In this document: positions 1 through 42,132 of the stretch, one piece after another | Layout: each line of letters opens with the position of its first letter | Position numbering within the stretch: the stretch's first letter is position 1 | Origin: Bacteroidota bacterium | GTDB lineage: Bacteria; Bacteroidota; Ignavibacteria; Kapaibacteriales; NICIL-2 | Assembly (NCBI GenBank): GCA_019695345.1 | Contig: JAIBAE010000004.1 | Location: 39,765-103,764, forward strand | Length of the DNA: 64,000 bases | Direction of reading: 5' to 3' | The notes under the pieces: generated by a model | The model's input: the letters and a program-made list of their open reading frames with translations, nothing else | Databases searched by the model: none | Told to the model about the DNA's origin: nothing | Program-made: the position numbers and the translations under genes

Positions 1-3000
1 GATGGTAGAATACAACCCCATATTGCTATTACTGTAGCCATTAACAACAGTTGAATATAATGTATCAGCTTTGTTGTCGTTGCCGGATAGTATTGCTGAA
101 TACATTCCGGATGCTATTTGATTTGCAACCGTTCTTGAGTGTTGCAAATCCACAGCGTTAAAACCTCGTTTATTACCACCAAAGATATTTCCGTTTGCTG
201 CATCAAGGGTAAAAGCACCAGCTCCCTTTGGCGAAAACACAGCATCAATATCTGTTGCTGTTCCGTTTGCTTTTAGAATTGAATTGAAACGTACAGAGTT
301 AGGTGCGGTGCTATCTTGCCACGCAAAAAAACCATCAATATTCGAAACAGAAAAACTTGAAGGATTCGACCAACTCATTACTCCTGCTGTTGAGCTGCTT
401 AAAACTTGTCCATTGGTAGTTGGTGCGGCTGTTGGTAATGTATACGTCACATCTGCCGACTGCACTCCGGCCTTAAATGCAGTATAGTTCGTTCCGGCAG
501 CAGGGAAGTCTCCATCTGCCGCTTGTGCTTCAAAAAATTTTAGTTCGCTTGCTGTGTTGTCCGTATTTCCAAGCCAGAGATCAACGTTACCAAAGTATGC
601 TGTTTTAGGTTCATTTATAAACACACTATCTGGACTGCTCGGATTCGTTCCTCCGTTAAAGCCAAATGAGCCATCAGCCAATGACCCGAATCTCAATCTA
701 TACCCCCCAGGAACCGATGAAAAATCGGCTGTAGAGTTATTCCAATAACCACCAACCGTGCTAACAAACCCACCGGAAACATTAGTCAATCCACCTGTGA
801 CAGTAGAACCAGAGCCACTTGCTGTGTTTAATGCACCACCAGGTATTACTGAGTTCGCACCACTTGCTGTGTTGATAGATCCTCCACCAACAGTTGAGTT
901 CTGACCTGATGCAGTGTTTACTTGACCTCCGGCTATTGTAGAATTTTGTCCAGATGCTACTTCTGACGAGCTACTTCGTAATAATTGCATGTCAACCGCC
1001 CATTGGCCTCTAGGGTTACCACCAGTTGCCGTTCCATCTGGTTTGTTAACAACAAGAGCACCGTTACCTTTGGGAACTAAAGCTAATGTAATGTTCGCAG
1101 TGCTACCGTTATCTGCTCGAATAGCTACTGTGTTTATAGGCGGTGCCTCTAAATCATCAATAACAATTGCGCTGCCCTGTACGGTATCGCCTGTTGCATT
1201 ATGATAACGGGTAAGTTGATTATCTGTAACTGTACCAAGTGTAACAACATCGCCGGTTGCATTGCTTGGAGTGCTCCACCCCAAGGTAACATTATTACCG
1301 CTAACGCCTGTTGCTGTTAAAACCTGATTTGTACTTGGCGTAGTACCGGGCAACGTCCACGTAATATCTGCTGTTTGAGTTCCAGCTTTTAGCGCGGTAT
1401 AGTTGGTGCCTGAAGCAGGGAAAGCGCCAGTTGTAGATTGTGACTCGTAAAAACGAATGGATGACGCAGAGTTTTTTGTGTTGCCTAACCAAAAATCTGT
1501 ATTACCAAAGTATGCGACACCTGCTTGAACAAGTGTAACAGTATCAGAAGCAGTAAATGGTCTGTGGTAAGCAAGGATACCTACGTTGTTGAGTTTCAGT
1601 AAACCTCCCCCTAACACAGTAGAACCAGGCATTGTAGTACTGCCATAAGCATCAATAATAATTCCACCAGTAGAAGTATTATTGCTTCCTCCTAAGATTA
1701 TTCCGCCTGAACTTACACCGTTTACAACATTGTCTGCTCCACCTAAAGTAACTCCATAAGGGTTATCAACGATATTATCGCTGCCACCTAGCGCTACAGC
1801 ATATAAAGATGAAGCTGTATTCCGATAACCGCCAACTAAGGCGGAATAATCACCGCTTGCAACTTGTGTTGCAGAAATTCTAGCAATCTGTAAATCAACT
1901 GCATTAATGCCGCGTGCATTTCCGCCTGTTGCTGCTCCGTCTGGTTTATCGGCTATCAAAGCTCCGTTGCCTTTGGGAGCAAGAACTAAGGAAATGTTTG
2001 CCGTACTACCATCATCAGCTTTAATTGTTACATTGTTTTGTGTTGATGTTGTATAGTCATCAATAACAATTGCACTTGATTGAATGGTATCACCACTTGT
2101 ATTATGGTACCGTGTTAATTGATTATCAGCAACTGTACCTAATGTAATTACATCACCACTTCCACCTGCATCAGTACTTGGCTCCCACTGTGATGTAGTG
2201 TTATTCCATTTCAATACCTGACCATTTGTTGGAGCCGTGGATGCAACAGTTCTATTCTGCAACTTTACTACATTCGGGTTTGGATACGTTCCGCTCAAGT
2301 CTCCACCGGCAGCTCCGGATGCTGTAATTGTTGAAGGTATCCAAGCAGTGCCACTCCATACTAATGTTTGTCCGGACGTTGGGGCAGCACCAGATACATC
2401 TCTATTTTGAATCCTAACCACACTCGGGTTTGGATACGTTCCACTTAAATCACCGCCGGCTGTTCCACTTGCACTCACTGTTGAAGGCGTCCACGATGTT
2501 CCATTCCATACTAAAGCTTGCCCTGTTGTAGCAGACATTTGATTCAGCTTCGCAGACGTCACCGAGCCATCGGCTAACTTAGTTGTCGTCACATTGCCGT
2601 CCAGAATCTTTGCTGTTGTAATAGCGTTTACCGCGACACTTGGGTTAGGATACGTCCCTGTTAAATCTCCACCTGCCGAACCACTTATAGATACTGCACT
2701 CGGAGCCCACGCTGTACCATTCCACACTAATGCTTGTCCGGTTGTTGGTGCAGTACTCGATATGTCTCTCGTTTGTAACTTTACTACATTCGGGTTAGGA
2801 TACGTTCCGCTTAAATCTCCACCTGCAGCCCCTGATGCTGTTATCGTTGAAGGTATCCAAGCAGCGCCACTCCATACTAATGTTTGTCCGGACGTTGGGG
2901 CAGCACCAGACACATCTCTATTTTGAATCCTAACTACATTTGGATTTGGATATGTACCGCTTAAATCTCCACCGGCTGTTCCACTTGTTGTAACTGTTGT

Positions 3001-6000
3001 CGGAGTCCATGCGGTTCCATTCCATACTAACGACTGCCCGCTTGTAGCTGACATCTGATGCAATTTTGAAGATGTTACTGAACCATCGGTAATCTTCGCA
3101 GTAGTAACAGCATTATTCGCTAGTTTTGCTGTCGTAATAGAACCATCCGTTACACCAATTGCACCGGCTGTTATATTAATCGCATCACCTGCTGTATATA
3201 CATCACCATTATCTGTCGATGGTGTCCATGCCGTTCCATTCCATTTTAACACCTGTCCGTTTGTAGCCGACATCTGGTTCAACTTCGCAGACGTTACAGA
3301 ACCATCCGCGAGTTTAGGAGTTGTTACATTAGCATCAGTAATCTTAACTGTCGTTACAGCATTGTTCGCTAGTTTTGCTGTCGTAATAGAACCATCTGTT
3401 ACTCCAATTGCACCGGCTGTAATGTTAATAGCATCACCTGCGGTATATACATCACCATTATCTGTCGATGGTGTCCATGCTGTGCCATTCCATTTTAACA
3501 CCTGTCCGTTTGTAGCAGACATCTGATTCAACTTCGCAGAGGTTACAGAACCATCAGCAAGTTTTGGTGTTGTTACATTAGCATCGGTAATCTTAGCTGT
3601 CGTAACAGCATTGGTAGCAAGTTTAGCTGTTGTGATTGAACCATCAGTTACGCCAATTGCTCCTGCTGTTATGTTAATAGCATCACCTGCTGTGTACACA
3701 TCACCATTATCTGTCGATGGTGTCCATGCCGTGCCATTCCACTTTAACACCTGTCCGCTTGTAGCCGACATCTGATTCAACTTCGCAGAGGTTACTGAAC
3801 CATCAGCAAGTTTTGGCGTTGTTACATTAGCATCGGTAATCTTCGCAGTAGTAACAGCATTAGTAGCAAGTTTAGCTGTTGTGATTGAACCATCAGTTAC
3901 ACCAATTGCTCCTGCTGTTATGTTAATAGCATCACCTGCTGTGTACACATCACCATTATCTGTCGATGGTGTCCATGCAGTTCCATTCCATTTTAACACC
4001 TGTCCGTTTGTAGCCGACATCTGATTCAACTTCGCAGAGGTTACTGAACCATCAGCAAGTTTAGGTGTTGTTACATTAGCATCGGTAATCTTCGCAGTAG
4101 TAACAGCATTAGTAGCAAGTTTAGCTGTTGTGATTGAACCATCAGTTACGCCAATTGCTCCTGCTGTTATGTTAATAGCATCACCTGCTGTGTACACATC
4201 ACCATTATCAGTCGATGGTGTCCATGCAGTTCCATTCCATTTTAACACCTGTCCGTTTGTAGCCGACATCTGATTCAACTTCGCAGATGTTACAGAACCA
4301 TCAGCAAGTTTAGATGTGGTTACATTAGCATCGGTAATCTTAGCAGTAGTAACAGCATTGGTAGCAAGTTTAGCTGTGGTTATGGAACCATCAGTTACAC
4401 CAATTGCACCGGCTGTAATATTGATAGCATCACCTGCTGTATACACATCACCATTATCTGTTGATGGTGTCCACGCTGTACCATTCCACTTCAACACTTG
4501 TCCGCTTGTTGGAGCTGTACTCGATACATCACGTGTTTGCAGTTTAACCACATTCGGGTTTGGATATGTGCCACTTAAATCCCCACCTGCTGTTCCACTT
4601 GTACTTACTGTTGTTGGTGCCCAAGCTGTTCCATTCCACACTAACGATTGCCCTGTTGTAGCAGACATCTGGTTCAACTTTGCAGAGGTTACTGAACCAT
4701 CGGCAAGTTTAGGTGTAGTTACATTAGCATCGGTAATCTTTGCTGTTGTCACAGCATTAGTAGCAAGTTTAGCTGTCGTTATTGAACCATCGGTTACTCC
4801 AATCGCTCCTGCTGTAATGTTAATAGCATCACCTGCTGTATATACATCTCCATTATCTGTTGATGGTGTCCATGCCGTGCCATTCCATTTTAATACCTGC
4901 CCGCTTGTAGCCGACATTTGATTCAACTTCGCAGAGGTAACAGAGCCATCTGCGAGTTTAGATGTAGTTACGTTAGCATCGGTAATCTTAACAGTCGTAA
5001 CAGCATTGGTAGCAAGCTTGGCTGTTGTGATTGAACCATCAGTTACACCAATTGCACCGGCTGAAATGTTAATAGCATCACCTGCAGTATATACATCACC
5101 ATTATCTGTCGATGGTGTCCATGCTGTACCATTCCACTTCAACACCTGCCCACTCGTTGCCGACATCTGGTTCAACTTCGCAGAGGTTACAGAACCATCG
5201 GCAAGTTTAGGTGTGGTTACATTAGCATCAGTAATTTTTGCTGTAGTAACAGCATTAGTAGCAAGTTTAGCTGTTGTGATTGAACCATCAGTTACACCAA
5301 TTGCACCAGCTGTTATATTGATAGCATCGCCCGCTGTATATACATCTCCATTATCTGTTGATGGAGTCCACGCCGTGCCATTCCACTTTAACACCTGTCC
5401 GCTTGTAGCCGACATTTGATTCAACTTCGCAGAGGTTACTGAACCATCAGCAAGTTTTGGCGTTGTTACATTAGCATCGGTAATCTTCGCAGTAGTAACA
5501 GCATTATTCGCAAGTTTAGCTGTTGTGATTGAACCATCAGTTACGCCAATTGCTCCTGCTGTTATGTTAATAGCATCACCTGCTGTGTACACATCACCAT
5601 TATCTGTTGATGGTGTCCATGCCGTTCCATTCCATTTCAACACCTGTCCGTTTGTAGCCGACATCTGATTCAACTTCGCAGATGTTACTGAACCATCAGC
5701 AAGTTTAGGTGTAGTTACGTTAGCATCGGTAATCTTAGCTGTTGTCACTGCATTGGTAGCCAGTTTAGCTGTGGTGATAGAACCATCGGTTACTCCAATC
5801 GCACCGGCTGTAATGTTAATAGCATCACCGGCTGTATACACATCGCCATTATCTGTCGATGGTGTCCATGCTGTTCCATTCCACTTCAACACTTGTCCAT
5901 TTGTTGCACCTTTTTGTGCGATAGTTGGTGCAGGATATGTTCCTGTTAAATCACCGGAAGCGGTTGTTGAGTTTGTTATATCATTACTTGCATCTGTATC

Positions 6001-7692
6001 TCCTGTGTTGGTTACAACTCCAGCCGTAATGTTAATTCCAGTTCCGGCTGTATATGTTTGTCCGTCATCATTTGCAGGTTGCCATGATGTGCCATTCCAC
6101 TTTAATACTTGGTTATTGGTTGCACCTTTTTGCGCCAATGTTGGGTTAGGGTATGTTCCCGTTAAATCTCCACCGGCAGAACCACTTGTTTGTGGCGTTA
6201 CGGGTATCCACGCACTTCCGTTCCATCCTAATACCTGACCATTGCTTGCACCTTTTTGTGCTATGGTTGGATTTGGGTACGTTCCGGCTAAATCTCCACC
6301 TGCAACACCGCTGCTTCCTGTGTTTATGGTAACCGGTTCCCATGAGTTTGTTGTAGCATTAAACTGTAACAACTGTCCGTTGGTTGGAGTGGTTGATGAT
6401 ACATTTACATTCTGAATCTTCTCAACTTTAAGATTGTTAAACACACCACTTACATCTCCACCTGCGGTTGATGTTATGGTAACATCGTTTGTTGAATCAG
6501 CATCACCGGTGTTAAGTATCAACGCACCGTTTATAGAAATACCTCTACCTGCGTTGTACACCTGACCGTTATCATTATCAGGTTGCCATGATGTACCGTT
6601 CCATTTTAGTACCTGACCATTTATTGCACCTTTTTGTGCCAAAGCTGGTGCAGGGTAGGTGCCGGATAAATCACCTCCGGCAGTGGTAGCGGTTGTAATG
6701 TCATTGTTAGGGTCGGTATCTCCCGTGTTGCTAATTGTGCTGCCGTTTATTGATATACCTCCACCGGCATTGTATATCTGTCCGTCATCATTAGCAGGTT
6801 GCCATGCAGTTCCTGTCCATTTTAATACTTGTCCATTGGCAGCACCTTTTGGTGCTAACGTAGGATTGGGATATGAACCTGTTAAATCACCGTCTGCCGA
6901 ACCGGATGGTGGTAGGGAAGTAGGAATCACTCCTGTTGCTAATTTGTTGGAGGTTATTGCGCCATTCTGAATTTTAGTTGTTCCTATCGAGCCATCTGCA
7001 ATTTCTACGTCCGCACCGGTGGATGTAAGCGTCACTTTAATCGAACCATCGGTACTTGTTATGGTTGTTATTCCGGTTGATGTAGATGAGATGCGTAATG
7101 TATTTCCAACTGTACTAACCGTTGTACCACCTTCGCCAAGAATACTAATTCTACCTTGCAGGTTGTTTAGACTTAGTACAACGTTTTTGGCATTGTCGGA
7201 AATCTCATTTGCTATGAGCGCAGTATCGCTTGTTCTTGAGTGCCCGGCTACAGAAGCAGAATCACTTAACAAAGCTTTTGTTGCATATGTAGCAGAGTCT
7301 GCATTGATTGCTTTTAATGCACTTAATGCAAATGGAACACTTACCAATGGTACACGAGGTGTCATTTCTTGCTGACCTTCAATTTGCACCGATAACCAAT
7401 ACGGCTTATCAAAAGCAAGGTTAAGAAGAGTTTTGTTTCCTAAAATTGCATCAAACACACCTTGGAATGTAACAACGGTTTGTTGTTCAGCCCACAACTC
7501 ATTTCCATTCGTTTCCGAATCGTACATTCTAAAGGTAACATTGTATTGTGCATCGGGCACGGGGTCGTTGTTTGGTAACGCAAGCGCACCCTGATAGTTT
7601 ATGGTCTTGGGTATCTGCGCTGTTGCATCCATAGTAAATGCACAGAATAAAACCATGAGTGTGAACAACAATGTATAAAATGTACTTTTCAT
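1..7692 (-). CDS. Giant repeat-rich secreted surface protein (tail-fibre/adhesin-like), paralog of the 28813..42132 gene. Partial: the C-terminus lies beyond the window start.
   Basis: The reverse complement of 7692 reads ATG AAA AGT ACA..., giving M-K-S-T-F-Y-T-L-L-F-T-L-M-V-L-F-C-A-F-T-M, a signal peptide. No in-frame minus-strand ORF with a stop is listed in the ORF track across 1..7692, consistent with a frame that stays open past the window edge. The plus-strand ORFs at 2594-6970 give the same peptides as the antisense ORFs inside gene B, so the coding strand here is minus. Tandem DNA repeats of 240 bp run from about 3060 to 5700. The N-terminal segment resembles gene B's N-terminus (NYQGxL..., ...PYWL..., ...SVPYAL...). 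Confidence 0.7.
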   Translation of the reverse strand, partial: MKSTFYTLLFTLMVLFCAFTMDATAQIPKTINYQGALALPNNDPVPDAQYNVTFRMYDSETNGNELWAEQQTVVTFQGVFDAILGNKTLLNLAFDKPYWLSVQIEGQQEMTPRVPLVSVPFALSALKAINADSATYATKALLSDSASVAGHSRTSDTALIANEISDNAKNVVLSLNNLQGRISILGEGGTTVSTVGNTLRISSTSTGITTITSTDGSIKVTLTSTGADVEIADGSIGTTKIQNGAITSNKLATGVIPTSLPPSGSADGDLTGSYPNPTLAPKGAANGQVLKWTGTAWQPANDDGQIYNAGGGISINGSTISNTGDTDPNNDITTATTAGGDLSGTYPAPALAQKGAINGQVLKWNGTSWQPDNDNGQVYNAGRGISINGALILNTGDADSTNDVTITSTAGGDVSGVFNNLKVEKIQNVNVSSTTPTNGQLLQFNATTNSWEPVTINTGSSGVAGGDLAGTYPNPTIAQKGASNGQVLGWNGSAWIPVTPQTSGSAGGDLTGTYPNPTLAQKGATNNQVLKWNGTSWQPANDDGQTYTAGTGINITAGVVTNTGDTDASNDITNSTTASGDLTGTYPAPTIAQKGATNGQVLKWNGTAWTPSTDNGDVYTAGDAINITAGAIGVTDGSITTAKLATNAVTTAKITDANVTTPKLADGSVTSAKLNQMSATNGQVLKWNGTAWTPSTDNGDVYTAGDAINITAGAIGVTDGSITTAKLANNAVTTAKITDANVTTPKLADGSVTSAKLNQMSATSGQVLKWNGTAWTPSTDNGDVYTAGDAINITAGAIGVTDGSITTAKLATNAVTTAKITDANVTTPKLADGSVTSAKLNQMSATSGQVLKWNGTAWTPSTDNGDVYTAGDAINISAGAIGVTDGSITTAKLATNAVTTVKITDANVTTSKLADGSVTSAKLNQMSATSGQVLKWNGTAWTPSTDNGDVYTAGDAINITAGAIGVTDGSITTAKLATNAVTTAKITDANVTTPKLADGSVTSAKLNQMSATTGQSLVWNGTAWAPTTVSTSGTAGGDLSGTYPNPNVVKLQTRDVSSTAPTSGQVLKWNGTAWTPSTDNGDVYTAGDAINITAGAIGVTDGSITTAKLATNAVTTAKITDANVTTSKLADGSVTSAKLNQMSATNGQVLKWNGTAWTPSTDNGDVYTAGDAINITAGAIGVTDGSITTAKLATNAVTTAKITDANVTTPKLADGSVTSAKLNQMSATNGQVLKWNGTAWTPSTDNGDVYTAGDAINITAGAIGVTDGSITTAKLATNAVTTAKITDANVTTPKLADGSVTSAKLNQMSATSGQVLKWNGTAWTPSTDNGDVYTAGDAINITAGAIGVTDGSITTAKLATNAVTTAKITDANVTTPKLADGSVTSAKLNQMSATNGQVLKWNGTAWTPSTDNGDVYTAGDAINITAGAIGVTDGSITTAKLANNAVTTVKITDANVTTPKLADGSVTSAKLNQMSATNGQVLKWNGTAWTPSTDNGDVYTAGDAINITAGAIGVTDGSITTAKLANNAVTTAKITDGSVTSSKLHQMSATSGQSLVWNGTAWTPTTVTTSGTAGGDLSGTYPNPNVVRIQNRDVSGAAPTSGQTLVWSGAAWIPSTITASGAAGGDLSGTYPNPNVVKLQTRDISSTAPTTGQALVWNGTAWAPSAVSISGSAGGDLTGTYPNPSVAVNAITTAKILDGNVTTTKLADGSVTSAKLNQMSATTGQALVWNGTSWTPSTVSASGTAGGDLSGTYPNPSVVRIQNRDVSGAAPTSGQTLVWSGTAWIPSTITASGAAGGDLSGTYPNPNVVKLQNRTVASTAPTNGQVLKWNNTTSQWEPSTDAGGSGDVITLGTVADNQLTRYHNTSGDTIQSSAIVIDDYTTSTQNNVTIKADDGSTANISLVLAPKGNGALIADKPDGAATGGNARGINAVDLQIARISATQVASGDYSALVGGYRNTASSLYAVALGGSDNIVDNPYGVTLGGADNVVNGVSSGGIILGGSNNTSTGGIIIDAYGSTTMPGSTVLGGGLLKLNNVGILAYHRPFTASDTVTLVQAGVAYFGNTDFWLGNTKNSASSIRFYESQSTTGAFPASGTNYTALKAGTQTADITWTLPGTTPSTNQVLTATGVSGNNVTLGWSTPSNATGDVVTLGTVTDNQLTRYHNATGDTVQGSAIVIDDLEAPPINTVAIRADNGSTANITLALVPKGNGALVVNKPDGTATGGNPRGQWAVDMQLLRSSSSEVASGQNSTIAGGQVNTASGQNSTVGGGSINTASGANSVIPGGALNTASGSGSTVTGGLTNVSGGFVSTVGGYWNNSTADFSSVPGGYRLRFGSLADGSFGFNGGTNPSSPDSVFINEPKTAYFGNVDLWLGNTDNTASELKFFEAQAADGDFPAAGTNYTAFKAGVQSADVTYTLPTAAPTTNGQVLSSSTAGVMSWSNPSSFSVSNIDGFFAWQDSTAPNSVRFNSILKANGTATDIDAVFSPKGAGAFTLDAANGNIFGGNKRGFNAVDLQHSRTVANQIASGMYSAILSGNDNKADTLYSTVVNGYSNSNMGLYSTI

Positions 7693-8188: not shown

Positions 8189-8212
8189 TGAACTACAACA
8201 CACCTTTAACGT
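8176..8212 (-). terminator. Rho-independent terminator for proS.
   Basis: On the minus strand: aaaggtgtgttgtagttcagcacacctttttttttgc. A 7 bp GC-containing stem is followed by a T-run immediately 3' of the proS stop. Confidence 0.6.
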
Positions 8213-26839: not shown

Positions 26840-26843
26840 AAGG

Positions 26844-34800: not shown

Positions 34801-37800
34801 TCGGTAACAGGTGGTTATCTAAACGTAGCCGGAAATACTAACTCGGTTGTGGCTGGTGGTCACACGAACAACAGTAGTGGGGCACAGTCTGCAATTCTCG
34901 GAGGTAGCGACAATGTCATTACGAGTACAGCCAACAACTCATCAATTGTCGGAGGTAGCACTAATACTCTCGAGGGAAGCTACAGCACAATACTGGGTGG
35001 AGTAGGTTTGCGTTTTACAGGTTCGTACAATTTCGGATTCAATGGTTTGACAACTACTGCAGACTCTGCATACATCAATTCATCTCGTGTTGGTTACTTC
35101 GGAAACGTAGATCTCTGGCTTGGAAATACGAATGGATCAGCAAGTTCGCTTAAGTTCTTCGAAGCTCAAGCGTCTGATGGAACCTTTCCTGCGGCTGGAA
35201 CTAACTACACAGCATTTAAAGCAGGAACTCAAACAACAGATGTTACATACACACTGCCAACTGCAGCTCCTGCAAGTAACGGACAAGTATTAAGTAGTAC
35301 AACGGCAGGAACAATGAGTTGGGTAACTCCAAGTACGGGTACTGGTGATGTAACAACACTTGGCACTGTAACTGATAATCAACTAACACGATACCATAAT
35401 ACAAGTGGTGATACAATCCAATCAAGTGCAATTGTAATAGATGATTATACAACAACAACACAAAACAATGTAGCTATAAAAGCTGATGATGGTGCAACAG
35501 CTGATATCTCACTTGTTCTTGCTCCTAAAGGTAATGGTGCACTAACAGCAGATAAACCGGACGGCACCACAGCAGGTGGGAATGCACGTGGCACCAATGC
35601 TGTTGACTTTCAGATGGTAAGAGTTGCAGGTAACCAAGTAGCAAGTGGAGATAACTCTTTCATTGGCGCGGGCTCAAGAAATAAAGCCACTGGTGGTAAT
35701 ACGGCGGTTGTGTCCGGTTATCAGAATACTGCGAATCAGGGTGCTATTCTAACTGGTCAAGATAACACTGTTTCTGGTGCTGCTTCGGCAATTGCAGGTG
35801 GATATGGTAATACAGTTGGTAGCTCAGGTTCATGGTCAGCTATACTTGCCGGTTATCAAAACACTGTAAATGCTGCTACTAGTTCGATAGTAGGAGGAAA
35901 TAAACTTACGTTAGGCGGAGTTGGCTCATTAGGATTTAATGGTAAAGATAGTGCTGTTGTTGGAGCACAGTACACTGCATACTTTGGAAATGTTGATGTA
36001 TGGCTTGGCAATACAGATACAGTTGCCCGTTCTTTGCGTTTTTACGAGGCTCAGACTTCAAGTGGAAACTTCCCTGCGGCAGGAACTAACTACACAGCAT
36101 TTAAAGCAGGAACACAAGCAACCGATGTAACCTACACATTACCAACTGCTGCACCAACAAGTAACGGACAAGTTTTAAGCAGTACCACAGGTGGAACAAT
36201 GAGTTGGGTTACACCAAGTACAGGCACTGGAGATGTAATTACACTTGGTACTGTAACAGATAATCAGCTAACACGTTACCATAATGCAACGGGTGATACC
36301 GTGCAAGGTAGTGCAATAGTTATAGATGATTATACAACAACAACACAAAACAATGTTGCTATAAAAGCAGATGATGGAAGTACTGCTAACATTTCGTTGG
36401 TAATGGCACCCAAAGGTACAGGAGCATTGATTGCAAGTAAACCAGACGGCACAGCTACTGGTGGTAATGCACGTGGTGCAAATGCAGTGGATTTACAAAC
36501 AGTTAGAGCGAATGCTGCCTATGTAGCAAGTGGAAATTATTCTGTGATTGCTGGGGGGGCTGAGAATAGAGCAACTGCCCTCTACTCAACAGTTGGTGGT
36601 GGCTACAATCACATTGCATCCGATACAGGTGCAACTATTGCAGGTGGTAATCAAAACTGGGCACAAGCTAACTATGCAACAGTAGGTGGAGGCTCTGGAA
36701 ATAGAGCCACAGCAGACTACGGAACGGTAGCAGGTGGAAATAGCAATGATGCCTCTGGACAATATTCTTTTGCTGGTGGTGGTAAATCAAATAATGCGTC
36801 AGGTCAATATGGAGTTGCTCTGGGCGGTTTGACCAATCAGGCAGATGGGGTATATTCTACAGTTATAAACGGTACAGATAACATCGCATCTGGTGATATA
36901 TCAACAATTCTTGGTGGAACTAAAAACATCACCGCAGGTAATTATACTATTGTTGGCGGGCATGGATTAAATTTTGGTAGTAACGCGGATAATAGTTTTG
37001 GGTATCATGGTTATAATGTATTGAGTGATTCGGTGTATATCAATACATCCAACATTGCTTACTTTGGTAATGTGGATATGTGGCTTGGTAATACAAGAAA
37101 CACAGCCAGCCAACTTAAGTTTTTTGAGCCACAATCAACCGACGGAACCTTCCCTGCAGCGGGTACTAACTATACAGCATTTAAAGCAGGAACGCAAACA
37201 ACTGATGTTACATACACATTGCCAACCGCAGCACCTGCAAGTAACGGACAAGTGTTAAGTAGTACAACAACAGGTACAATGAGTTGGGTAACACCAAGTA
37301 CAGGTACTGGTGATGTAGTTACACTTGGCACTGTAACAGATAACCAACTTACACGTTACCATAACACAAGTGGGGATACAATACAATCTAGTGCAATAGT
37401 GATTGATGACTACACAACAACTACTCAAAATAATGTAGCTATTAAGGCCGATAATGGTGCAGCTCTTGACATCTCCTTAGTTCTTGTGCCTAAAGGTAAC
37501 GGAGCATTAATTTCTAGTAAACCTGATGGAACCGCAACCGGGGGTAATGCTCGTGGAATGTATGCAGTTGATTTACAACTAAATCGTGCAGCAGCATCTC
37601 AAGTAGCAAACGGTGCCTACGCTACGGTTCTTGGCGGTAGGCGAAATACGGCTAATGGGCAGTATAGTATTGTGAGTGGCGGTGATGGTAATACAATTGG
37701 CGCAGGTGGCTTAGTTGCAACCGTTTCAGGCGGGTCATCAAATACTGCTACTAATACGTGGTCAACTATTGGTGGCGGAAATACAAACACAGCAACTGGA

Positions 37801-40800
37801 GTAGGAACTACTATTGGTGGTGGGCAAAATAATCAAGCAAGTAATAGTTATTCGGTTGTAGCGGGAGGTTTAACAGATACAGCGTCCGGTGATTACTCTG
37901 TTGTTAGTGGTGGAACTGCGAATGTTGCGAGTGGCACGAGTGCTGTAGTATCCGGTGGTGAATTAAACAAGGCAACAGGCAATCAAACTACAATTTTAGG
38001 TGGATTTGGTTTACGATTAGGAGGCACTGGTTCATTTGGTTTTAATGGTTTTAACACCGTTGCTGATTCTGCCTTTGTTTCGAATGATAGAACGGCATAT
38101 TTTGGCAACGTAGATTTGTGGTTGGGTAATACAGATAATACAACAAGTGAATTACGTTTCTTTGAAGCACAATCAACAGATGGAATCTTCCCTGCGGCCG
38201 GAACTAACTACACTGCATTTAAAGCAGGTACACAAACAGCAGATGTTACTTACACTCTTCCCACAGCGTATCCAACTGTTAGCGGGCAAGTTTTAAGCAG
38301 TACTACAGTTGGTGTTATGAGTTGGGTAACGGCAAGTAGTGGGTTAACGCATTTTACAGAATCAGTTAATACTTCAGCACCTAATGTAACAGTACCTGTA
38401 GTACGCTTGCTTGCAACAAATGCAGCTACCAATGTTGATGTGGCACTAAGCCCCAAAGGTAGCGGTGCACTAACAGGTAATGTAGCAGATAATACTCTAA
38501 GTGGTGGCAACAAACGTGGCACCTATGCTGTAGATTGGCAACTAAATCGATCTGCTGCTAACCAAGTAGCAAGTGGAAACTGGTCAGTTCTATCTGGTGG
38601 AGCTGGAAATGTTTCAAGTGGATTGTATTCAACTGTAGGTGGAGGATGGTTTAATCAGGCAACCAATCAACATGCAGTTGTAGGTGGTGGAGAAGGCAAC
38701 TCTGCAACTGCTGCCGCTTCTTCTGTTTTAGGTGGCTCTGGTAATATTGCAAGTGGGCAATATTCAGCTGCTGTTAGTGGATGGGTAAACACAGCAAGTG
38801 GAGGTTATTCCAATATTACTGGGGGTGATCATAATACAACCAGTGGAAGTTATTCCAATATTAATGGCGGCGGTTATAATACAGCAGGTGCTAACTATAC
38901 GGTAATTGGAGGTGGCTATCTAAATATAGTTGCGGCTGATTATACATCAATTGCTGGCGGTTATGCTCTTCGAATGGGAGGGGTCGGATCTTTTGGATTT
39001 AATGGATTCAATGCTCTAACTGACTCAGCTTACATAACTGCAAATAGAACGGCATATCTTGGTAATGTTGATTTATGGCTTGGAAATACTGACAACACTA
39101 CAAGTGAGCTTAGATTTTATGAAGCTCAGTCAACTGACGGAACTTTTCCAGCTGCTGGTACAAACTACACTGCATTCAAAGCAGGTACACAAACAGCAGA
39201 TGTTACTTACACTCTACCAACCGCAGCACCTGCAAGTAACGGTCAAGTGTTAAGTAGTACAACAACAGGAACAATGAGTTGGGTTACCGCCGGTGGCGGG
39301 GACGTGACCGGACCGGCATCCTCCGTTGATAACGCCTTAGCACGATATGATGGTACAACTGGTAAAATAATCCAGAACAGCGGTTTGATTCTTGACGATT
39401 ATTCTACAGCTACACAGGCAAACGTTACACTTCGCGCCGATAGCGGTTCGGTAGCAAACATTTCGATGGTATTATCACCGAAAGGAACTGGAGCTTTACT
39501 TGCTAACAAGCCAAATGGTGCTGTTACAGGCGGTAATGCAAGAGGCATCAATGCTGTTGACTTACAAACGAGTAGAACAGCATCTACTCAAGTAGCTTCT
39601 GGTGATTACACTGTTATATTAGGGGGTAGTGATAACACTGCCACTGGAACAGCATCCTCTATTCTAGGAGGGTATGATAACACGGCAAGTGGTAGCTTCT
39701 CTGTAATATCAGGTGGTTTTTCAAATTCAAATACAACTATTAGTTCTTATTCTGTTATCGGTGGCGGGCTTCATAATTCTGTGAGTGATGGTGGATCAAC
39801 GGTAGGTGGTGGGGTAGATAATTCGGCCTTAGCACAGGGGAGTGCTATAGCTGGTGGTGGAAGAAATTATACTAACCAAAATTATGGAAGTATTAGTGGC
39901 GGTTTTGAGGATACTATAAACACTTCTGCCACCTACGCTACAATTTCAGGTGGACAAAGAAATAAGATTACTGCATCTTTAGGATCAATTGGGGGTGGTA
40001 AGGCTAATACCGTTAGTGGTGATTATTCTACCATAGCAGGTGGTTATTCGTTACGCCAGACAGGCATTGGTTCATTTGGGTTTAATGGTTATAACACAAT
40101 TGCCGATTCTGCTTATGTATCAGCAAATAGAACTGCTTACTTTGGCAACGTAGATTTGTGGTTGGGTAACACAGATAATACAACAAGTGAACTACGTTTC
40201 TTTGAAGCACAATCAACCGACGGAACCTTCCCAGCCGCAGGTACAAACTACACTGGGTTTAAAGCTGGCACACAAACAGCAGATATAACATACACGTTGC
40301 CAGTCGCAGCACCTGCAAGTAACGGTCAGGTATTAAGTAGCACAACAGGTGGTGTTATGAGTTGGGTAACAGCTGGAAGTGGTGATGTAACCGGACCTTC
40401 CGCCTCTGTAAATAACGCTATTGCACGATTTGATGGTACAACAGGTAAAATTATCCAAAATAGTGGAATAGTTATAGATGACACAGTTACAGTAAGTGCT
40501 AAAAAAATAGTAACCCTTAGAGCTGAAGATAATACTACAGCAAATATTACTTTATCGTTGTTACCAAAAGGTACCGGTGCACTAACCGCCAGCAAACCAG
40601 ACGGTACAGCATTTGGCGGGAATATCAGAGGTGATTATGCAGTAGATTTACAGACATCAAGAGGTACCGGTACACAAGTAGCAAGTGGCAACTACTCTGT
40701 TATAAGTGGCGGAAAATTTAATACTGCATCTGGATTGAATTCTACCATTGCAGGTGGTTCGAGTTGTGTTGCAAGTGGCAACTATTCATTTGTAAGTAGT

Positions 40801-42132
40801 GGATTAAATAATGTTGCCAATGGGCTTTACTCAGCTATTGGTGGGGGTAGTGATAATTATGTTACACAACAAGGTAGTTCCATTTCCGGTGGCAGTAGGA
40901 ATTATGTTAATCAAGACTTTTCAACAATTGGTGGTGGTATTGATGATACCATCAATACTGCTGCAATATATTCCACTATTGCTGGCGGACAAGCCAACAA
41001 GATAACTGCAAATCGTTCTGCTATTGGTGGTGGTTATGGAAATTATATCAGTGGGGCGAGTGGTACAATTGCCGGGGGCTATCTGGACACAGTTTCCGGT
41101 ACTTTTGCAGTTGTTGCTGGTGGTTATAAAAATAATGTTAGTGGAAGCTATTCAACTATTAGCAGTGGTTATGTTAATTATGTCAGCAGTCAATACTCTG
41201 CAATTTTAGGAGGTGCTAATAATGATGTTACTGCAAACTATTCTTCAGTTCTTGGTGGGCAAGCAAATACAGCAAATGGCCAATACAATTTGGTATTTGG
41301 AAATGCAGTTGTACCAACGGTAACAGAAAACTACCGTGTATATTTCTTCGAACCTACAAGCTACGGGTTCTTGGGAATTAACCGTGAAGATTTAGACTAC
41401 CCTATTCATGTTGGGACGAGTGCTTCCAATGGTAATGGCGCGTATCTGACGACTGGTGGAGTGTGGACAAACGGTTCATCACGAACATTCAAAGACCGTT
41501 ATACAAGTTTGGATAGTGCCGAAGTACTTAAGAAAGTTCGCAATCTTGATGTTCGTGGGTGGTGGTACAAAGGAACACAAGAGTATCATGTCGGACCTTT
41601 TGCCGAGGATTTTCGTGATGCCTTTGGAACAGGTGTTCTGGACAACACTGATAGTAGAAAATACTTAGCCGCCACAGACATTGCAGGTGTTGCGTTGTAC
41701 TCATCGCAACAACTTATCAAACAAAACGAACAACTCTTTTCTGAAAACGAGCGCATGAAATCCGAAAACGAATCTATTAAACTTCGTTTGGAACGTTTGG
41801 AAAGTATTATTTCTAACAAACCCGTTTCTACCGAAACTGTTACACCTGTTCAGCAAACAAAAACAAATGCTCCGCGAATTGTTAGCATTGCGCCGGACCC
41901 GGCAGGAAACTACGCAGTAGTAAAATTCGAGTTGCCAAAAGCTGCTAATGTTGAACTGTTTGTTTCGGCAGGTAATGGAACTCGTACGCTTGATATTATG
42001 AGTGGCGTGTTTATGCAAGCAGGTACCTACGATGTAGAAGTAAATCTTAACGATGTAGCAAACGGTTGGTATGTATGCGAACTTCGTGCATCGGCTGAAT
42101 CTGCACAACGGTTGTTCAGAGTAGTTAAATAA
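28813..42132 (+). CDS. Giant (about 4440 aa) secreted tail-fibre-like adhesin. It has a signal peptide, an N-terminal domain, eight 80/126-aa repeats, seven repeats of about 330 aa, a C-terminal intramolecular-chaperone (peptidase S74-like) domain and a T9SS CTD.
   Basis: The ORF is 28702..42132. The likely start is Met at 28813 (MSFSRFTLFLFLLCSSVVFAQ). DNA repeats of 240 bp (period example 32281 to 32521) encode ...AINITAGAIGVTDGSITTAKLA... Repeats of about 1 kb begin at approximately 34380, 35340, 36230, 37310, 38340, 39300 and 40380 (GDVTTLGTVTDNQLTRYHNTSGDTIQ...YFGNVDLWLGNT...). The C-terminal GNGAYLTTGGVWTNGSSRTFKDRY...HVGPFAEDFRDAFG...DIAGVALYSSQQLIKQNEQL matches the phage tail-fibre chaperone domain. 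The final 85 aa (IVSIAPDPAGNYAVVKFELPK...LFRVVK) match the T9SS CTD. Confidence 0.85.
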   Translation: MSFSRFTLFLFLLCSSVVFAQIPRTVNYQGVLLDAQNQPVTDSTYLVKFSLFTSSANGTELWSEDKLVTTSGGVFDVILGTRAPLSLSFDAPYWLEIQVENRAPFTPRIGLTSVPYALRADTTTVALEVSSNAKVVRSINAISGNVRLKAGSGVQITELGDTITISTTAVGSANPIIRSPQGTLVVSGKDTIDIDVADGGILTKHLADKSITTVKIAQNGATNGQVLKWNGTTWVAADDNGSSYSAGSGITINAGVVTNTGDTDPNDDITNTSTAGGDLTGTYPNPTVKAGAITTPKIADAAVTGAKLEDIITSGTFGNASTVPQITVDTKGRITGVQNVPISATNLTTAGGDLDGTYPNPTLAQKGATNGQVLKWNGTSWQPDNDNGQVYNAGRGISINGALILNTGDADSTNDVTITSTAGGDVSGVFNNLKVEKIQNVNVSSTTPTNGQLLQFNATTNSWEPVTINTGSSGVAGGDLAGTYPNPTIAQKGASNGQVLGWNGSAWIPVTPQTSGNAGGDLTGTYPNPTLAQKGATNNQVLKWNGTSWQPANDDGQTYTAGTGINITAGVVTNTGDTDASNDITNSTTAAGDLTGTYPAPTIAQKGATSGQVLKWNGTAWTPSTDNGDVYTAGDAINITAGAIGVTDGSITTAKLANNAVTTAKITDANVTTPKLADGSVTSTKLNQMSATSGQVLKWNGTSWQPANDDGQTYTAGTGINITSGVVTNTGDTDASNDITNSTTAAGDLTGTYPAPTIAQKGATNGQVLGWNGSAWIPVTPQTSGSAGGDLTGTYPNPTLAQKGATNGQVLKWNGTAWTPSTDNGDVYTAGDAINITAGAIGVTDGSITTAKLANNAVTTAKITDANVTTPKLADGSVTSAKLNQMSATSGQSLVWNGTAWTPTTVSASGTAGGDLSGTYPNPNVVKLQTRDVSSTAPTSGQVLKWNGTAWTPSTDNGDVYTAGDAINITAGAIGVTDGSITTAKLATNAVTTAKITDANVTTPKLADGSVTSAKLNQMSATSGQSLVWNGTAWTPTTVTTSGTAGGDLSGTYPNPNVVKLQTRDVSSTAPTSGQVLKWNGTAWTPSTDNGDVYTAGDAINITAGAIGVTDGSITTAKLATNAVTTVKINDANVTTPKLADGSVTSAKLNQMSATSGQVLKWNGTAWTPSTDNGDVYTAGDAINITAGAIGVTDGSITTAKLATNAVTTVKITDANVTTPKLADGSVTSAKLNQMSATSGQVLKWNGTAWIPSTDNGDVYTAGDAINITAGAIGVTDGSITTAKLANNAVTTAKITDANITTPKLADGSVTSTKLNQMSATTGQSLVWNGTAWTPTTVSASGTAGGDLSGTYPNPNVVKLQTRDVSSTAPTSGQVLKWNGTAWTPSTDNGDVYTAGDAINITAGAIGVTDGSITTAKLATNAVTTAKITDANVTTPKLADGSVTSAKLNQMSATNGQTLVWNGTAWTPTTVSASGTAGGDLSGTYPNPNVVKLQNRNVAATAPTNGQVLKWNNTTSVWEPGADNNTTYTAGAGISIAGNVISNSGDTDASNDITNTTTAGGDLSGTYPNPNVVKLQTRDVSSTAPTTGQALVWNGTAWAPSAVSVSGSAGGDLTGTYPNPSVAVNAITTAKILDGNVTTSKLSDGSVTSAKLNQMSATSGQSLVWNGTAWTPTTVTTSGTAGGDLSGTYPNPNVVKLQTRDVSSTAPTSGQSLVWNGTAWTPTTVSASGTAGGDLSGTYPNPNVVKLQNRNVASTSPTNGQVLKWNNTTSVWEPSADNNNTYTAGAGISIAGNVITNTGDTDASNDITNTTTAGGDLSGTYPNPNVVKLQTRDVSSTAPTTGQVLKWNGTAWTPSTDAGGSGDVTTLGTVIDNQLTRYHNTSGDTIQSSAIVIDDYTTTTQNNVAIKADDGATADITLVLAPKGNGALSADKPNGVAAGGNARGIAAVDFQMERSAATHVASGDYSTIGGGYANTASGNYSTVAGGYQNSATAFRSSVTGGYLNVAGNTNSVVAGGHTNNSSGAQSAILGGSDNVITSTANNSSIVGGSTNTLEGSYSTILGGVGLRFTGSYNFGFNGLTTTADSAYINSSRVGYFGNVDLWLGNTNGSASSLKFFEAQASDGTFPAAGTNYTAFKAGTQTTDVTYTLPTAAPASNGQVLSSTTAGTMSWVTPSTGTGDVTTLGTVTDNQLTRYHNTSGDTIQSSAIVIDDYTTTTQNNVAIKADDGATADISLVLAPKGNGALTADKPDGTTAGGNARGTNAVDFQMVRVAGNQVASGDNSFIGAGSRNKATGGNTAVVSGYQNTANQGAILTGQDNTVSGAASAIAGGYGNTVGSSGSWSAILAGYQNTVNAATSSIVGGNKLTLGGVGSLGFNGKDSAVVGAQYTAYFGNVDVWLGNTDTVARSLRFYEAQTSSGNFPAAGTNYTAFKAGTQATDVTYTLPTAAPTSNGQVLSSTTGGTMSWVTPSTGTGDVITLGTVTDNQLTRYHNATGDTVQGSAIVIDDYTTTTQNNVAIKADDGSTANISLVMAPKGTGALIASKPDGTATGGNARGANAVDLQTVRANAAYVASGNYSVIAGGAENRATALYSTVGGGYNHIASDTGATIAGGNQNWAQANYATVGGGSGNRATADYGTVAGGNSNDASGQYSFAGGGKSNNASGQYGVALGGLTNQADGVYSTVINGTDNIASGDISTILGGTKNITAGNYTIVGGHGLNFGSNADNSFGYHGYNVLSDSVYINTSNIAYFGNVDMWLGNTRNTASQLKFFEPQSTDGTFPAAGTNYTAFKAGTQTTDVTYTLPTAAPASNGQVLSSTTTGTMSWVTPSTGTGDVVTLGTVTDNQLTRYHNTSGDTIQSSAIVIDDYTTTTQNNVAIKADNGAALDISLVLVPKGNGALISSKPDGTATGGNARGMYAVDLQLNRAAASQVANGAYATVLGGRRNTANGQYSIVSGGDGNTIGAGGLVATVSGGSSNTATNTWSTIGGGNTNTATGVGTTIGGGQNNQASNSYSVVAGGLTDTASGDYSVVSGGTANVASGTSAVVSGGELNKATGNQTTILGGFGLRLGGTGSFGFNGFNTVADSAFVSNDRTAYFGNVDLWLGNTDNTTSELRFFEAQSTDGIFPAAGTNYTAFKAGTQTADVTYTLPTAYPTVSGQVLSSTTVGVMSWVTASSGLTHFTESVNTSAPNVTVPVVRLLATNAATNVDVALSPKGSGALTGNVADNTLSGGNKRGTYAVDWQLNRSAANQVASGNWSVLSGGAGNVSSGLYSTVGGGWFNQATNQHAVVGGGEGNSATAAASSVLGGSGNIASGQYSAAVSGWVNTASGGYSNITGGDHNTTSGSYSNINGGGYNTAGANYTVIGGGYLNIVAADYTSIAGGYALRMGGVGSFGFNGFNALTDSAYITANRTAYLGNVDLWLGNTDNTTSELRFYEAQSTDGTFPAAGTNYTAFKAGTQTADVTYTLPTAAPASNGQVLSSTTTGTMSWVTAGGGDVTGPASSVDNALARYDGTTGKIIQNSGLILDDYSTATQANVTLRADSGSVANISMVLSPKGTGALLANKPNGAVTGGNARGINAVDLQTSRTASTQVASGDYTVILGGSDNTATGTASSILGGYDNTASGSFSVISGGFSNSNTTISSYSVIGGGLHNSVSDGGSTVGGGVDNSALAQGSAIAGGGRNYTNQNYGSISGGFEDTINTSATYATISGGQRNKITASLGSIGGGKANTVSGDYSTIAGGYSLRQTGIGSFGFNGYNTIADSAYVSANRTAYFGNVDLWLGNTDNTTSELRFFEAQSTDGTFPAAGTNYTGFKAGTQTADITYTLPVAAPASNGQVLSSTTGGVMSWVTAGSGDVTGPSASVNNAIARFDGTTGKIIQNSGIVIDDTVTVSAKKIVTLRAEDNTTANITLSLLPKGTGALTASKPDGTAFGGNIRGDYAVDLQTSRGTGTQVASGNYSVISGGKFNTASGLNSTIAGGSSCVASGNYSFVSSGLNNVANGLYSAIGGGSDNYVTQQGSSISGGSRNYVNQDFSTIGGGIDDTINTAAIYSTIAGGQANKITANRSAIGGGYGNYISGASGTIAGGYLDTVSGTFAVVAGGYKNNVSGSYSTISSGYVNYVSSQYSAILGGANNDVTANYSSVLGGQANTANGQYNLVFGNAVVPTVTENYRVYFFEPTSYGFLGINREDLDYPIHVGTSASNGNGAYLTTGGVWTNGSSRTFKDRYTSLDSAEVLKKVRNLDVRGWWYKGTQEYHVGPFAEDFRDAFGTGVLDNTDSRKYLAATDIAGVALYSSQQLIKQNEQLFSENERMKSENESIKLRLERLESIISNKPVSTETVTPVQQTKTNAPRIVSIAPDPAGNYAVVKFELPKAANVELFVSAGNGTRTLDIMSGVFMQAGTYDVEVNLNDVANGWYVCELRASAESAQRLFRVVK

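Follow-up and report, generated by a model that had tools for sequence, protein, structure and literature searches.

Giant inverted surface-fibre genes of an uncultured Kapaibacterium: gene conversion, a partly homogenised shared segment and a candidate inversion junction

Two paralogous giant surface-fibre genes (A and B), divergently transcribed from opposite strands in the uncultured wastewater bacterium Candidatus Kapaibacterium sp. (Kapabacteria, Bacteroidota), share inverted homology of two classes, tandem 249-bp arrays and a 1066-bp segment just upstream of the arrays, and apparently recombine. The organism is named by its ProRS, M42 and OmpA proteins. The genes were analysed in a window of 64,000 nucleotides (the whole stretch of contig JAIBAE010000004.1 under study), and three near-clonal assemblies were compared: the window, a 3.28-Mb contig (GCA_046329015.1) and the 41.9-kb contig JBGARQ010000036.1 (GCA_044230155.1). 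Intragenic conversion is documented between strains and inversion of about 24 kb is suggested by one contig junction; this reading as a whole is given slightly better than even credence.

The fibre locus and its predicted proteins

Genes A and B are giant, paralogous and inverted, as the sequence-only reading of this DNA had recognized: all 45 of the blastn HSPs between positions 1-7800 and 28601-42200 lie on the minus strand (A 2194-6688, B 29853-34119, about 4.5 kb of inverted homology in total), the aligned N-termini are 47% identical across about 335 amino acids, and the genes have an 83-aa unit in common. The layout of the locus is as follows.

1..7692, minus strand: gene A (partial), first 2564 aa, with its ATG at 7692; the frame exits the window start
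6689..7692, minus strand: gene-A-specific 5' part, signal peptide and N-terminal domain (47% aa identity to gene B)
1..2118, minus strand: head modules of gene A within the window, two in full (GGNxRG ... FGNxDxWLGNT) and the beginning of another (motif map)
7693..28812, no strand: interval of 21.1 kb between the two start codons, ordinary genes (Pfam)
28813..42132, plus strand: gene B, complete, 4439 aa (ORF 28702-42132; a 4439-aa gene is also called in GCA_046329015.1)
34435..41263, plus strand: seven head modules of gene B, YadA/UspA1-type beta-roll repeats (PDB 3pr7, motif map)
41473..41874, plus strand: S74-like intramolecular chaperone region (GSSRxFK motif), then a long helix (PF13884, motif, AF2)
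41875..42129, plus strand: C-terminal 85-aa beta-sandwich resembling a T9SS sorting domain (Por_Secre_tail, Foldseek)

Full-length gene A encodes 3574 aa according to the gene call in the near-clonal strain GCA_046329015.1, and its translation begins with a signal-peptide-like sequence (MKSTFYTLLF). The likelier start of gene B is the ATG at 28813 (MSFSRF...), which has GGAG ahead of it and coincides with the gene start annotated in another assembly; the GGAG-ATG arrangement is present in both genes. The regions upstream of A and of B are unrelated in sequence, so that an inversion would exchange promoters. The interval between the start codons encodes ProRS, TPR proteins, a hydrolase, T9SS-tailed proteins, an M42 peptidase, a methyltransferase and thiamine pyrophosphokinase, along with an IS200-like ORF that has a weak Pfam match to Y1 transposase (22.6 bits, cut-off 23). 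Pfam searches of the 7.7-28.8 kb region and just downstream yielded no invertase, integrase, or serine or tyrosine recombinase. The GC-skew profile tracks the coding strand and is uninformative on any past inversion.

Each fibre is predicted to comprise a signal peptide, a conserved N-terminal domain, a GQxLxWNG-type stalk with the 83-aa units (which match a phage orf16 motif), and several UspA1/YadA-like heads. The head modules match the UspA1 head (PDB 3pr7, E = 1.4e-17; 3ntn was matched too), and the YadA-type C-terminal beta-barrel anchor is absent from Pfam scans of the full-length protein and of the C-terminus. The C-terminus of gene A falls beyond the window, and the S74 and T9SS tail is read in gene B, where the AF2 model (monomer prediction, overall pLDDT 84) predicts a helix and an Ig-like sandwich, with pLDDT 91-97 over most of the S74-like region and helix. 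The S74-like assignment comes from a sub-cut-off match to PF13884 (19.8 bits, cut-off 22), a domain carried by many homologues; S126, S127 and K131 are nearly invariant among 54 homologues (S-x4-K motif) and SSRxFK is found family-wide. A homologue search with the C-terminus did not retrieve the giant proteins as such. The last 85 aa of gene B match Por_Secre_tail (PF18962 / TIGR04183) at 14.3 bits against a cut-off of 27, covering model positions 3-69 of 75, and neighbouring genes have clear PF18962 matches. Foldseek with the C-terminal model retrieved the C-terminal domains (CTDs) of RgpB (7pq4, E = 0.015) and mirolase (8qb1, E about 0.02) among matches dominated by generic Ig-like sandwiches, and so weakly favours a T9SS CTD. 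In gene A, residues 16-88 match the NCBIfam profile NF053851, Bdello_MAT_N (31.2 bits, E = 1.7e-7, cut-off 60), which has no match in gene B. The MAT_N, S74 and T9SS-CTD assignments thus all score under curated cut-offs.

The fibres resemble the mosaic adhesive trimer (MAT) fibres of Bdellovibrio (PMC10769870) in their putative N-terminal domain (the weak NF053851 match), long repetitive fibre, mosaic of modules and several paralogues per genome, and the S74 subfamily of MAT fibres (PMC10769870) in a C-terminal S74 autoproteolytic chaperone, putative here from a sub-cut-off match. Unlike the MAT fibres, they belong to another phylum, have no known link to predation, are about 4 times longer, and have several UspA1-like heads along the fibre and a T9SS-like domain after the S74 region. 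They share UspA1 head beta-roll repeats with the YadA/UspA1 trimeric autotransporter adhesins, but gene B ends in S74-like and T9SS-CTD-like parts, with no YadA-type membrane anchor by Pfam.

Repeat arrays and the shared segment

The two classes of homology occupy the following positions.

3016..5904, minus strand: array of 11 units in gene A, A1-A5, a 150-bp module, then A6-A11, A11 being divergent (TRF, anchors, identity matrix)
30637..33171, plus strand: seven 249-bp units of gene B, with 150-bp modules and one partial shared-segment copy between them (TRF, anchors, identity matrix)
5623..6688, minus strand: shared segment, A copy, 1066 bp, 93.5% identical and ungapped versus B 29853-30918
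29853..30918, plus strand: shared segment, B copy, identical in the two strains

The repeat unit (...AINITAGAIGVTDGSITTAKLA...) is found in both genes, 11 times in A and 7 times in B, with a period of 249 bp (83 aa) by TRF and anchor spacing, in place of the 240 bp first proposed; an extra 150-bp (50-aa) module between some units gives a 399-bp composite. The units had been judged by eye nearer 95-100% identical within each gene and about 90% identical between genes, but their mean DNA identity is 86.9% for pairs in A, 86.8% for pairs in B and 86.5% for A-B pairs, and only A2, A7, A8 and A9 attain 94-98%; the near-identity is at the protein level, 94-100% and equal within and between genes. 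Third codon positions hold 82% of all differences between units (dS 0.58-0.71, about 0.6; dN/dS 0.017-0.034, about 0.02). The swapping of repeat cassettes between the A and B arrays, first raised as a possibility, was not seen: the best DNA match of any A unit to a B unit is 92%, and none is a recent copy. Cluster representatives matched by the 83-aa unit alone number 11,487. The units of a second Kapaibacterium species are 95.5% identical in amino acids and 90% in nucleotides within the gene, and 81% and 71% identical, respectively, to those of the window; in a related species, unit spacing varies from 63 to 83 aa.

Nor did copy number prove to be unstable, as the sequence-only reading had expected. 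Gene A has 11 units at the same amino acid coordinates in the window and GCA_046329015.1, and the alignment of gene B is ungapped over 8.4 kb in a third assembly. The proposed phase variation is contradicted by the lengths of the repeated elements (249, 150 and 399 bp), all multiples of three, so that a change in copy number would alter the length of the fibre only and could not switch it on or off. With near-frozen protein, synonymously diverged DNA and exact runs no longer than about 100 bp, the arrays are probably poor substrates for recombination. Such protein-identical, synonymously diverged repeats, in two Kapaibacterium species, are a useful counter-example to any simple inference of DNA instability from repeats identical as protein.

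Concerted evolution of tandem-repeat surface proteins is exemplified by the repeat adhesins of staphylococci and streptococci. These resemble the fibres in having in-frame units nearly identical in protein and closer within a lineage than across species, and in undergoing conversion events; they differ in that their units are nearly identical in DNA as well, whereas the fibre units are about 13% diverged, almost entirely by synonymous changes, and stable in copy number among the compared strains.

The longest and best match between A and B is not the tandem repeat but the 1066-bp segment just upstream of the arrays, which includes exact blocks of 81-110 bp; the expectation that the inverted homology is long enough to recombine was thus borne out. 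Exact inverted matches of at least 25 bp between the genes number 123, and exact identity extends over at most 110 bp between A and the reverse complement of B, 98 bp inside A and 95 bp inside B. Judged by this homology, the shared segment is the preferred recombination substrate of the locus. Fixed differences between its A and B copies number 7 in the first 630 bp (1.1%) and 40 in the next 430 bp (9%). Set against 9% in the adjoining stretch and about 13% in the arrays, divergence as low as 1.1% over 630 bp requires exchange between A and B at some time, and this distribution of fixed sites shows the shared segment to have been partly homogenised by recombination. Patchy conversion was also considered for the sites that differ between the A genes of the window and a second strain (34 of 39 with one of the two equal to B), but was rejected because lineage-specific mutation in an A gene descended from an ancestor equal to B would give the same pattern.

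Conversion in gene A and a candidate inversion junction

The positions at which the assemblies differ are the following.

3235..4200, minus strand: stretch overwritten in GCA_046329015.1 by 965 bp copied without mismatch from the block corresponding to 4879-5844 (intragenic gene conversion)
6055..6241, minus strand: crossover zone, A side (informative-site walk, GCA_044230155.1)
30300..30486, plus strand: crossover zone, B side (informative-site walk)

The window and GCA_046329015.1 are otherwise identical across tens of kb. The donor block lies 1644 bp upstream of the replaced stretch in gene A, and its copying left the number of units unchanged: units A8-A10 of GCA_046329015.1 equal A2-A4 with 0 mismatches, and the longest perfect repeat in gene A is 965 bp in that strain versus at most 98 bp in the window. 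This conversion between near-clonal strains demonstrates, at the level of assembled genomes, that homologous recombination acts at the fibre locus.

The 3.28-Mb contig has the same uninverted arrangement as the window. JBGARQ010000036.1, in contrast, consists of window positions about 22971..6100 reverse-complemented, followed by about 30400..55300 forward, and fuses the ProRS flank and the A N-terminus in frame with the body of B and the genes downstream of B. Its B side matches the 3.28-Mb strain at 100% identity, and its ProRS side shows 4 mismatches over 13.5 kb. A walk along informative sites found it A-like to site 447 of the shared segment and B-like from 534/633, with a single clean switch located inside an exact repeat of 86-98 bp. 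The chimeric ORF is intact at 4427 aa (4439 minus 12), matching the prediction for an inversion.

Such a contig could have arisen by a reciprocal crossover, presumably of the RecA type, inside one of the exact blocks of the shared segment. The crossover would invert about 24 kb (window about 6.1-30.4 kb) and swap the promoter, signal peptide and first 480-510 aa between two fibre bodies, to give two in-frame chimeras, one of 4427 aa and the other predicted at 3586 aa; JBGARQ010000036.1 would show the first (4427-aa) of these two predicted junctions. Exact-protein look-ups of the B-start neighbours, which gave short Logan contigs or nothing, did not find the reciprocal junction (B N-terminus and A body). 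Two exact-pattern scans of JGI metagenome contigs, with the shared block and the A-specific N-terminus, returned zero matches, the species being absent there, and a scan of genome contigs by N-terminal alignment gave a best match of 38%, the species being unrepresented or masked there. Inversion of the intervening segment, as originally suggested, has gained a predicted junction in GCA_044230155.1, but in one contig that is possibly a chimera, the other two assemblies being uninverted. The junction could be either a real 24-kb inversion or an assembly chimera.

The weightiest alternative, plausible though the less probable reading, is that the paralogues are static: an old inverted duplication with its similarity held by purifying selection, a chimeric 41.9-kb contig, no natural inversion and only occasional intragenic conversion. 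The order shared by the window and the 3.28-Mb contig agrees with it, as does array DNA that is equally diverged within and between genes and lacks any mark of recent exchange between arrays, and so does dN/dS of about 0.02, which implies strong purifying selection. Short-read Logan contigs all end inside the shared segment at about 6568, so that the assembly graph is ambiguous there, and the switch in the chimeric contig falls within an exact block, precisely the kind of place at which short-read and hybrid assemblers can make false joins. Mismatch repair, moreover, would penalise recombination at 93.5% identity, and the inverted junction occurs in one contig, with two assemblies agreeing on the uninverted order. 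Nevertheless, static paralogues do not account for the 1.1% fixed divergence in the first 630 bp of the shared segment, which needs past exchange between A and B; the contig has one clean switch and a perfect reading frame, not the mosaic of a popped bubble; and contigs of the same WGS series are titled 'opera_contig', which suggests a hybrid long-read assembly needing spanning long reads.

Frequent copy-number change in the 249-bp arrays, with length or phase variation and cassette exchange between the genes, appears improbable. Although the units are in frame, A2, A7, A8 and A9 show some recent copying within the array, unit spacing varies in a related species, and the 965-bp conversion in GCA_046329015.1 makes a strong substrate for a 1644-bp deletion or duplication, the constant positions of the 11 A units, the ungapped alignment of B, the short exact runs of units only about 87% identical in DNA, the lack of any A unit recently copied from B, and periods that preclude on/off switching all argue against it. 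Still less credible is programmed inversion at short defined sites (of the shufflon, Gin/Hin/Cin or tyrosine-recombinase type): inverted fibre genes and a candidate junction would suit it, but the Pfam search in and beside the interval yielded only the weak IS200-like Y1 ORF and no serine or tyrosine recombinase, and the switch point lies in kilobase-scale coding homology, not in short inverted repeats. Recombination between inverted paralogues, the preferred reading, admits a bolder extension that we regard as unlikely: the 24-kb inversion may be a functional, recurrent RecA-driven switch of promoters and anchoring N-terminal modules between the two fibre bodies, in which stalk repeats, synonymously recoded, would keep the same protein yet resist deletion and ectopic exchange, and the high-identity cassette of 0.6-1 kb just upstream would channel crossovers into a single safe, in-frame position.

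Fibre genes among recombining surface-protein loci

Giant repetitive fibre genes are common in uncultured Bacteroidota and their relatives, and are among the worst-assembled parts of metagenome genomes; at this locus, the structural disagreement between near-clonal public assemblies falls precisely on such genes. Either inversion re-pairs fibre N-termini and promoters with other bodies, or a deposited MAG holds a 42-kb chimera, and each outcome concerns anyone working with these genomes.

Homologous recombination between inverted surface-protein paralogues is already known, and the fibre locus would add a further case. The sap inversion of Campylobacter fetus, in work attributed to Dworkin and Blaser and to Tu et al., is reportedly RecA-dependent and involves a single promoter. 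The sap genes are likewise inverted surface-protein paralogues, with a conserved stretch of roughly 0.6-1 kb in common near their 5' ends, and their recombination re-pairs the 5' part and promoter with another gene body without a dedicated invertase; for the fibre genes such re-pairing is a candidate outcome. Recombination is frequent in the C. fetus sap region (PMC3887049). Unlike the sap system, A and B each have their own unrelated upstream region, so that inversion would swap two predicted promoters together with N-terminal domains instead of relocating a single promoter through which one paralogue is expressed at a time; the shared segment begins about 1 kb inside the genes; and the genes encode fibres, at 10-13 kb, rather than S-layer proteins, with 21 kb of housekeeping genes carried on the segment that would be inverted.

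Two giant fibre genes and their inverted homology

The window carries two paralogous giant fibre genes, A and B, on opposite strands and separated by ordinary genes.

7692 to beyond the left end of the window, minus strand: gene A, read from an ATG at 7692, 2564 aa visible
7693-28812: interval of ordinary genes for ProRS, two TPR proteins, an alpha/beta hydrolase, an M42 peptidase, T9SS-tailed beta-propeller proteins, a methyltransferase, thiamine pyrophosphokinase and a SWIM protein
23285-23911: IS200/Y1-transposase-like ORF in this interval (Pfam Y1_Tnp, 22.6 bits against a cut-off of 23; RAYT-like by eye)
28702-42132, plus strand: gene B, as the ORF is called

The product of gene A begins with a signal-peptide-like sequence (MKSTFYTLLF...), and gene B likely starts at ATG 28813 (MSFSRFTLFLF..., giving a product of 4439 aa), since GGAG precedes this codon and the same start is called in another assembly. 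The two N-termini are 47% identical across the first ~335 aa, and are followed in both proteins, according to a motif map, by a stalk of GQxLxWNG-type modules and then by ~300-aa 'head' modules. The regions upstream of the two genes are unrelated to each other. An exact 25-bp direct repeat (28433-28457 and 28499-28523, 66 bp apart; none expected by chance) lies ~300 bp 5' of the gene B start and could be a REP-like or regulatory element.

The inverted homology proposed in the sequence-only reading was borne out by blastn (1-7800 versus 28601-42200), in which all 45 of 45 HSPs were inverted, covering A 2194-6688 and B 29853-34119. The best HSP, ungapped over 1066 bp (A 5623-6688 versus B 30918-29853, 93.5% identity), is not the tandem repeat; this shared segment sits directly upstream of both arrays and contains exact blocks of 81-110 bp. 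Inverted exact matches of at least 25 bp number 123, the longest being 110 bp between A and the reverse complement of B (longest within A, 98 bp; within B, 95 bp). Tandem Repeats Finder gave repeat periods of 249, 399 and 150 bp, in place of the 240 bp given in the sequence-only reading. Copies of the anchor motif DNGDVYTAGDAINI[TS]AGAIGVTDGSITTAKLA (11 in A, 7 in B) are spaced 83 aa apart, lengthening to 133 aa wherever a 50-aa module intervenes.

Divergence and conversion of the repeat units

The description of the repeats as near-identical holds for the protein (83-aa units 94-100% identical) and fails for the DNA (~87%): mean unit identity is 86.9% within A, 86.8% within B and 86.5% between them, not 95-100% within and 90% between. 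Only A2, A7, A8 and A9 (numbered units of gene A) are 94-98% alike. Third codon positions hold 82% of all unit differences. Nei-Gojobori estimates of dS are 0.58 (A), 0.71 (B) and 0.67 (A versus B), with dN of 0.010-0.024 and dN/dS of 0.017-0.034; the four-gamete test is failed by 66% of the informative site pairs. Low DNA identity and short exact runs make the arrays far worse substrates for unequal exchange or slippage than would be guessed from the protein identity.

A Candidatus Kapaibacterium MAG of a second species (GCA_016788605.1, locus L119) encodes a partial gene-A-like protein, P0131, with the same divergence pattern. Identity among its units is 95.5% (aa) and 90% (nt), but only 81% (aa) and 71% (nt) with those of the window, and the same lineage-specific substitutions are common to every one of them. 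Thus, units are homogenised or amplified within a lineage, the protein then remaining near-invariant while synonymous sites drift. The units of the L119 gene (JAEUSO010000016.1, 10001-12843) are spaced 63, 73 and 83 aa apart according to differing numbers of an 11-aa ANVTTAKLAD-type sub-repeat, and length therefore varies at the sub-repeat level between units.

Exact-protein look-up retrieved the locus in two NCBI MAGs and in numerous short Logan contigs. The contig of strain 2 (GCA_046329015.1, JAXLVM010000001.1) is collinear with window 1-55305, with zero mismatches over most of that stretch and differences only in patches; the strains are therefore near-clonal. A cluster of 86 mismatches falls at window 3000-4500. 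Units A8, A9 and A10 of strain 2 are exact copies of A2, A3 and A4, its A7 differs from A1 by 7 bases, and 965 bp of its gene A are repeated perfectly in direct orientation, 1644 bp apart (window equivalents 3235-4200 and 4879-5844; strain-2 records L002 and L029), versus no exact repeat >98 bp in gene A of the window. This is an intragenic gene conversion of ~1 kb that left copy number unchanged. Such conversion resets part of the array to perfect identity, transiently making a strong substrate.

Between A and B, the first 630 bp of the shared segment hold 7 fixed differences (1.1%) and the next 430 bp hold 40 (9%), and the arrays differ by ~13%; independently of any rearranged contig, the two genes have exchanged sequence at some time.

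A chimeric contig and a candidate inversion

One contig joins the two genes.

JBGARQ010000036.1 (GCA_044230155.1), 41.9 kb: from about window 22971 downward, a T9SS gene, TPR genes, ProRS and the start of A; then in frame into the body of B; then the genes downstream of B (Por_Secre_tail protein, OmpA, TMEM260-like protein, OEP, DUF1800/1501)

Over 22 kb on its B side it shows no difference from strain 2 (100.000% identity), and its ProRS side has 4 mismatches in 13.5 kb. The single switch from A-type to B-type sequence lies inside an exact block, between informative sites 447 and 534/633 of the shared segment (window A 6241-6055, B 30300-30486). The chimeric ORF is called at 4427 aa, 12 fewer than the 4439 of gene B, which matches the 36-nt difference in the position of the shared segment between the two genes. 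The junction is the right-hand one predicted for an inversion of ~6.1 to ~30.4 kb; it was seen in this contig only, and the reciprocal junction was not among the loci recovered by exact-protein look-up. The species was not found in the JGI contig collection. A patch of 7.5 kb (6151-13500) with ~3% divergence between the two otherwise near-identical strains has its left edge inside the shared segment, adjoining the crossover zone, and may be an inter-strain recombination import ending in the conserved block.

A RecA-type reciprocal crossover in the shared segment would invert ~24 kb and swap the promoter, signal peptide and N-terminal 480-510 aa between the two fibre bodies. Since this segment encodes almost the same protein sequence in both genes, a crossover anywhere within it would yield a functional in-frame chimera, and regulation and anchoring modules would be re-paired with other stalk/head sets; on/off switching would not follow, because both genes keep a promoter.

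The chances that this is a real inversion polymorphism are roughly even. A static locus, with the 41.9-kb contig as an assembly chimera, is a somewhat doubtful but serious possibility: the junction sits in an exact repeat, where assemblers can mis-join, and Logan contigs from many runs all end inside the shared segment at ~6568, but the switch is clean rather than mosaic and the reading frame is intact. These same two features favour the inversion, as does the name 'opera_contig' borne by other contigs of the accession series, which suggests hybrid assembly guided by long reads and may apply to GCA_044230155.1. Array copy-number instability, considered likely in the sequence-only reading, is improbable as the main dynamic: no variation was seen, with 11 units at the same residue positions in gene A of strain 2 and ungapped alignment of gene B across assemblies in the parts compared, and poor array substrates fit a stable copy number, although the 965-bp repeat of strain 2 is a fresh substrate for in-frame deletion or duplication of 548 aa. 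A site-specific switch is very improbable; no invertase or integrase was found by Pfam in the interval 7693-28812.

In the sap locus of Campylobacter fetus, paralogues in opposite orientation share conserved 5' parts, and inversion between these joins a promoter to a different gene body. This locus, in which recombination has been noted (PMC3887049), is the closest working analogue of the candidate inversion. Unlike it, the A/B locus has two promoters instead of one, much larger genes, and housekeeping cargo.

Protein type and neighbouring genes

The ProRS, M42 peptidase and OmpA-family proteins encoded in the window are identical to deposited proteins of Candidatus Kapaibacterium sp. / Bacteroidota bacterium, and the MBX-series accession numbers agree with its gene order. 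In the fibre proteins, a match to the UspA1 head (trimeric adhesin; PDB 3pr7, E = 1.4e-17) was obtained for the head modules, and one to PDB chain 9eg4_H ('orf16', E = 7e-6) for the ITTAKLA-type part of the 83-aa unit. The N-terminus of gene A scored 31.2 bits against NCBIfam Bdello_MAT_N (cut-off 60) and the C-terminus of gene B 19.8 bits against Peptidase_S74, just under the cut-off of 22; no YadA-type anchor was found in the fibre proteins. Both proteins seem to function as mosaic trimeric fibres, of a kind with MAT fibres (PMC10769870), tail fibres and TAA heads. They resemble MAT fibres and TAA heads but fall short of the family tests; formal membership of the named families is putative, and for TAA it was refuted. 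At E <= 1e-3 the 83-aa unit family comprises 11,487 cluster representatives, many being proteins of several thousand residues, and the N-terminal domain is present in Bacteroidota, Ignavibacteriota, Omnitrophota, Zixibacteria and other phyla.

The C-terminus of gene B has a GSSRxFK motif conserved family-wide, and the final 85 aa bear a weak resemblance to a T9SS sorting domain. An AlphaFold model built from 54 homologues (pLDDT 84) has a beta-roll, a compact helical/strand region, a long helix and a terminal beta-sandwich; Foldseek matches to it include the C-terminal domains of RgpB and mirolase. Within 41473-42129, GSSRTFK, predicted to be the motif for S74 autocleavage, comes before the T9SS-like C-terminal sorting domain; if self-cleavage preceded export, the fibre would lose its secretion signal.

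Clear T9SS sorting domains occur in neighbours at 17300-20011 and 42371-43309 (PF18962, E = 5e-11 and 2e-12), and gene B is followed by two genes with overlapping stop/start codons, which encode a Por_Secre_tail protein and an OmpA-family protein; such neighbours may be partners of the fibre. Two overlapping ORFs at 21388-23279, of 308 and 326 aa and with BNR/sortilin-like and Por_Secre_tail parts, match a single 650-aa gene in strain 2 (L029 7863-9815), and their split is a frameshift, pseudogene or sequencing error in the window. Strain 2 has no gene called at the place of the IS200/Y1-like ORF. The window and strain 2 are only 90% identical over 21850-25546, around which many short-read contigs end. 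The locus lies at 1.654-1.699 Mb of the 3.28-Mb contig of strain 2, within about 1-2% of its midpoint; the cumulative GC skew minimum in the window falls between the two divergent giant genes, and the skew mostly follows the coding strand.
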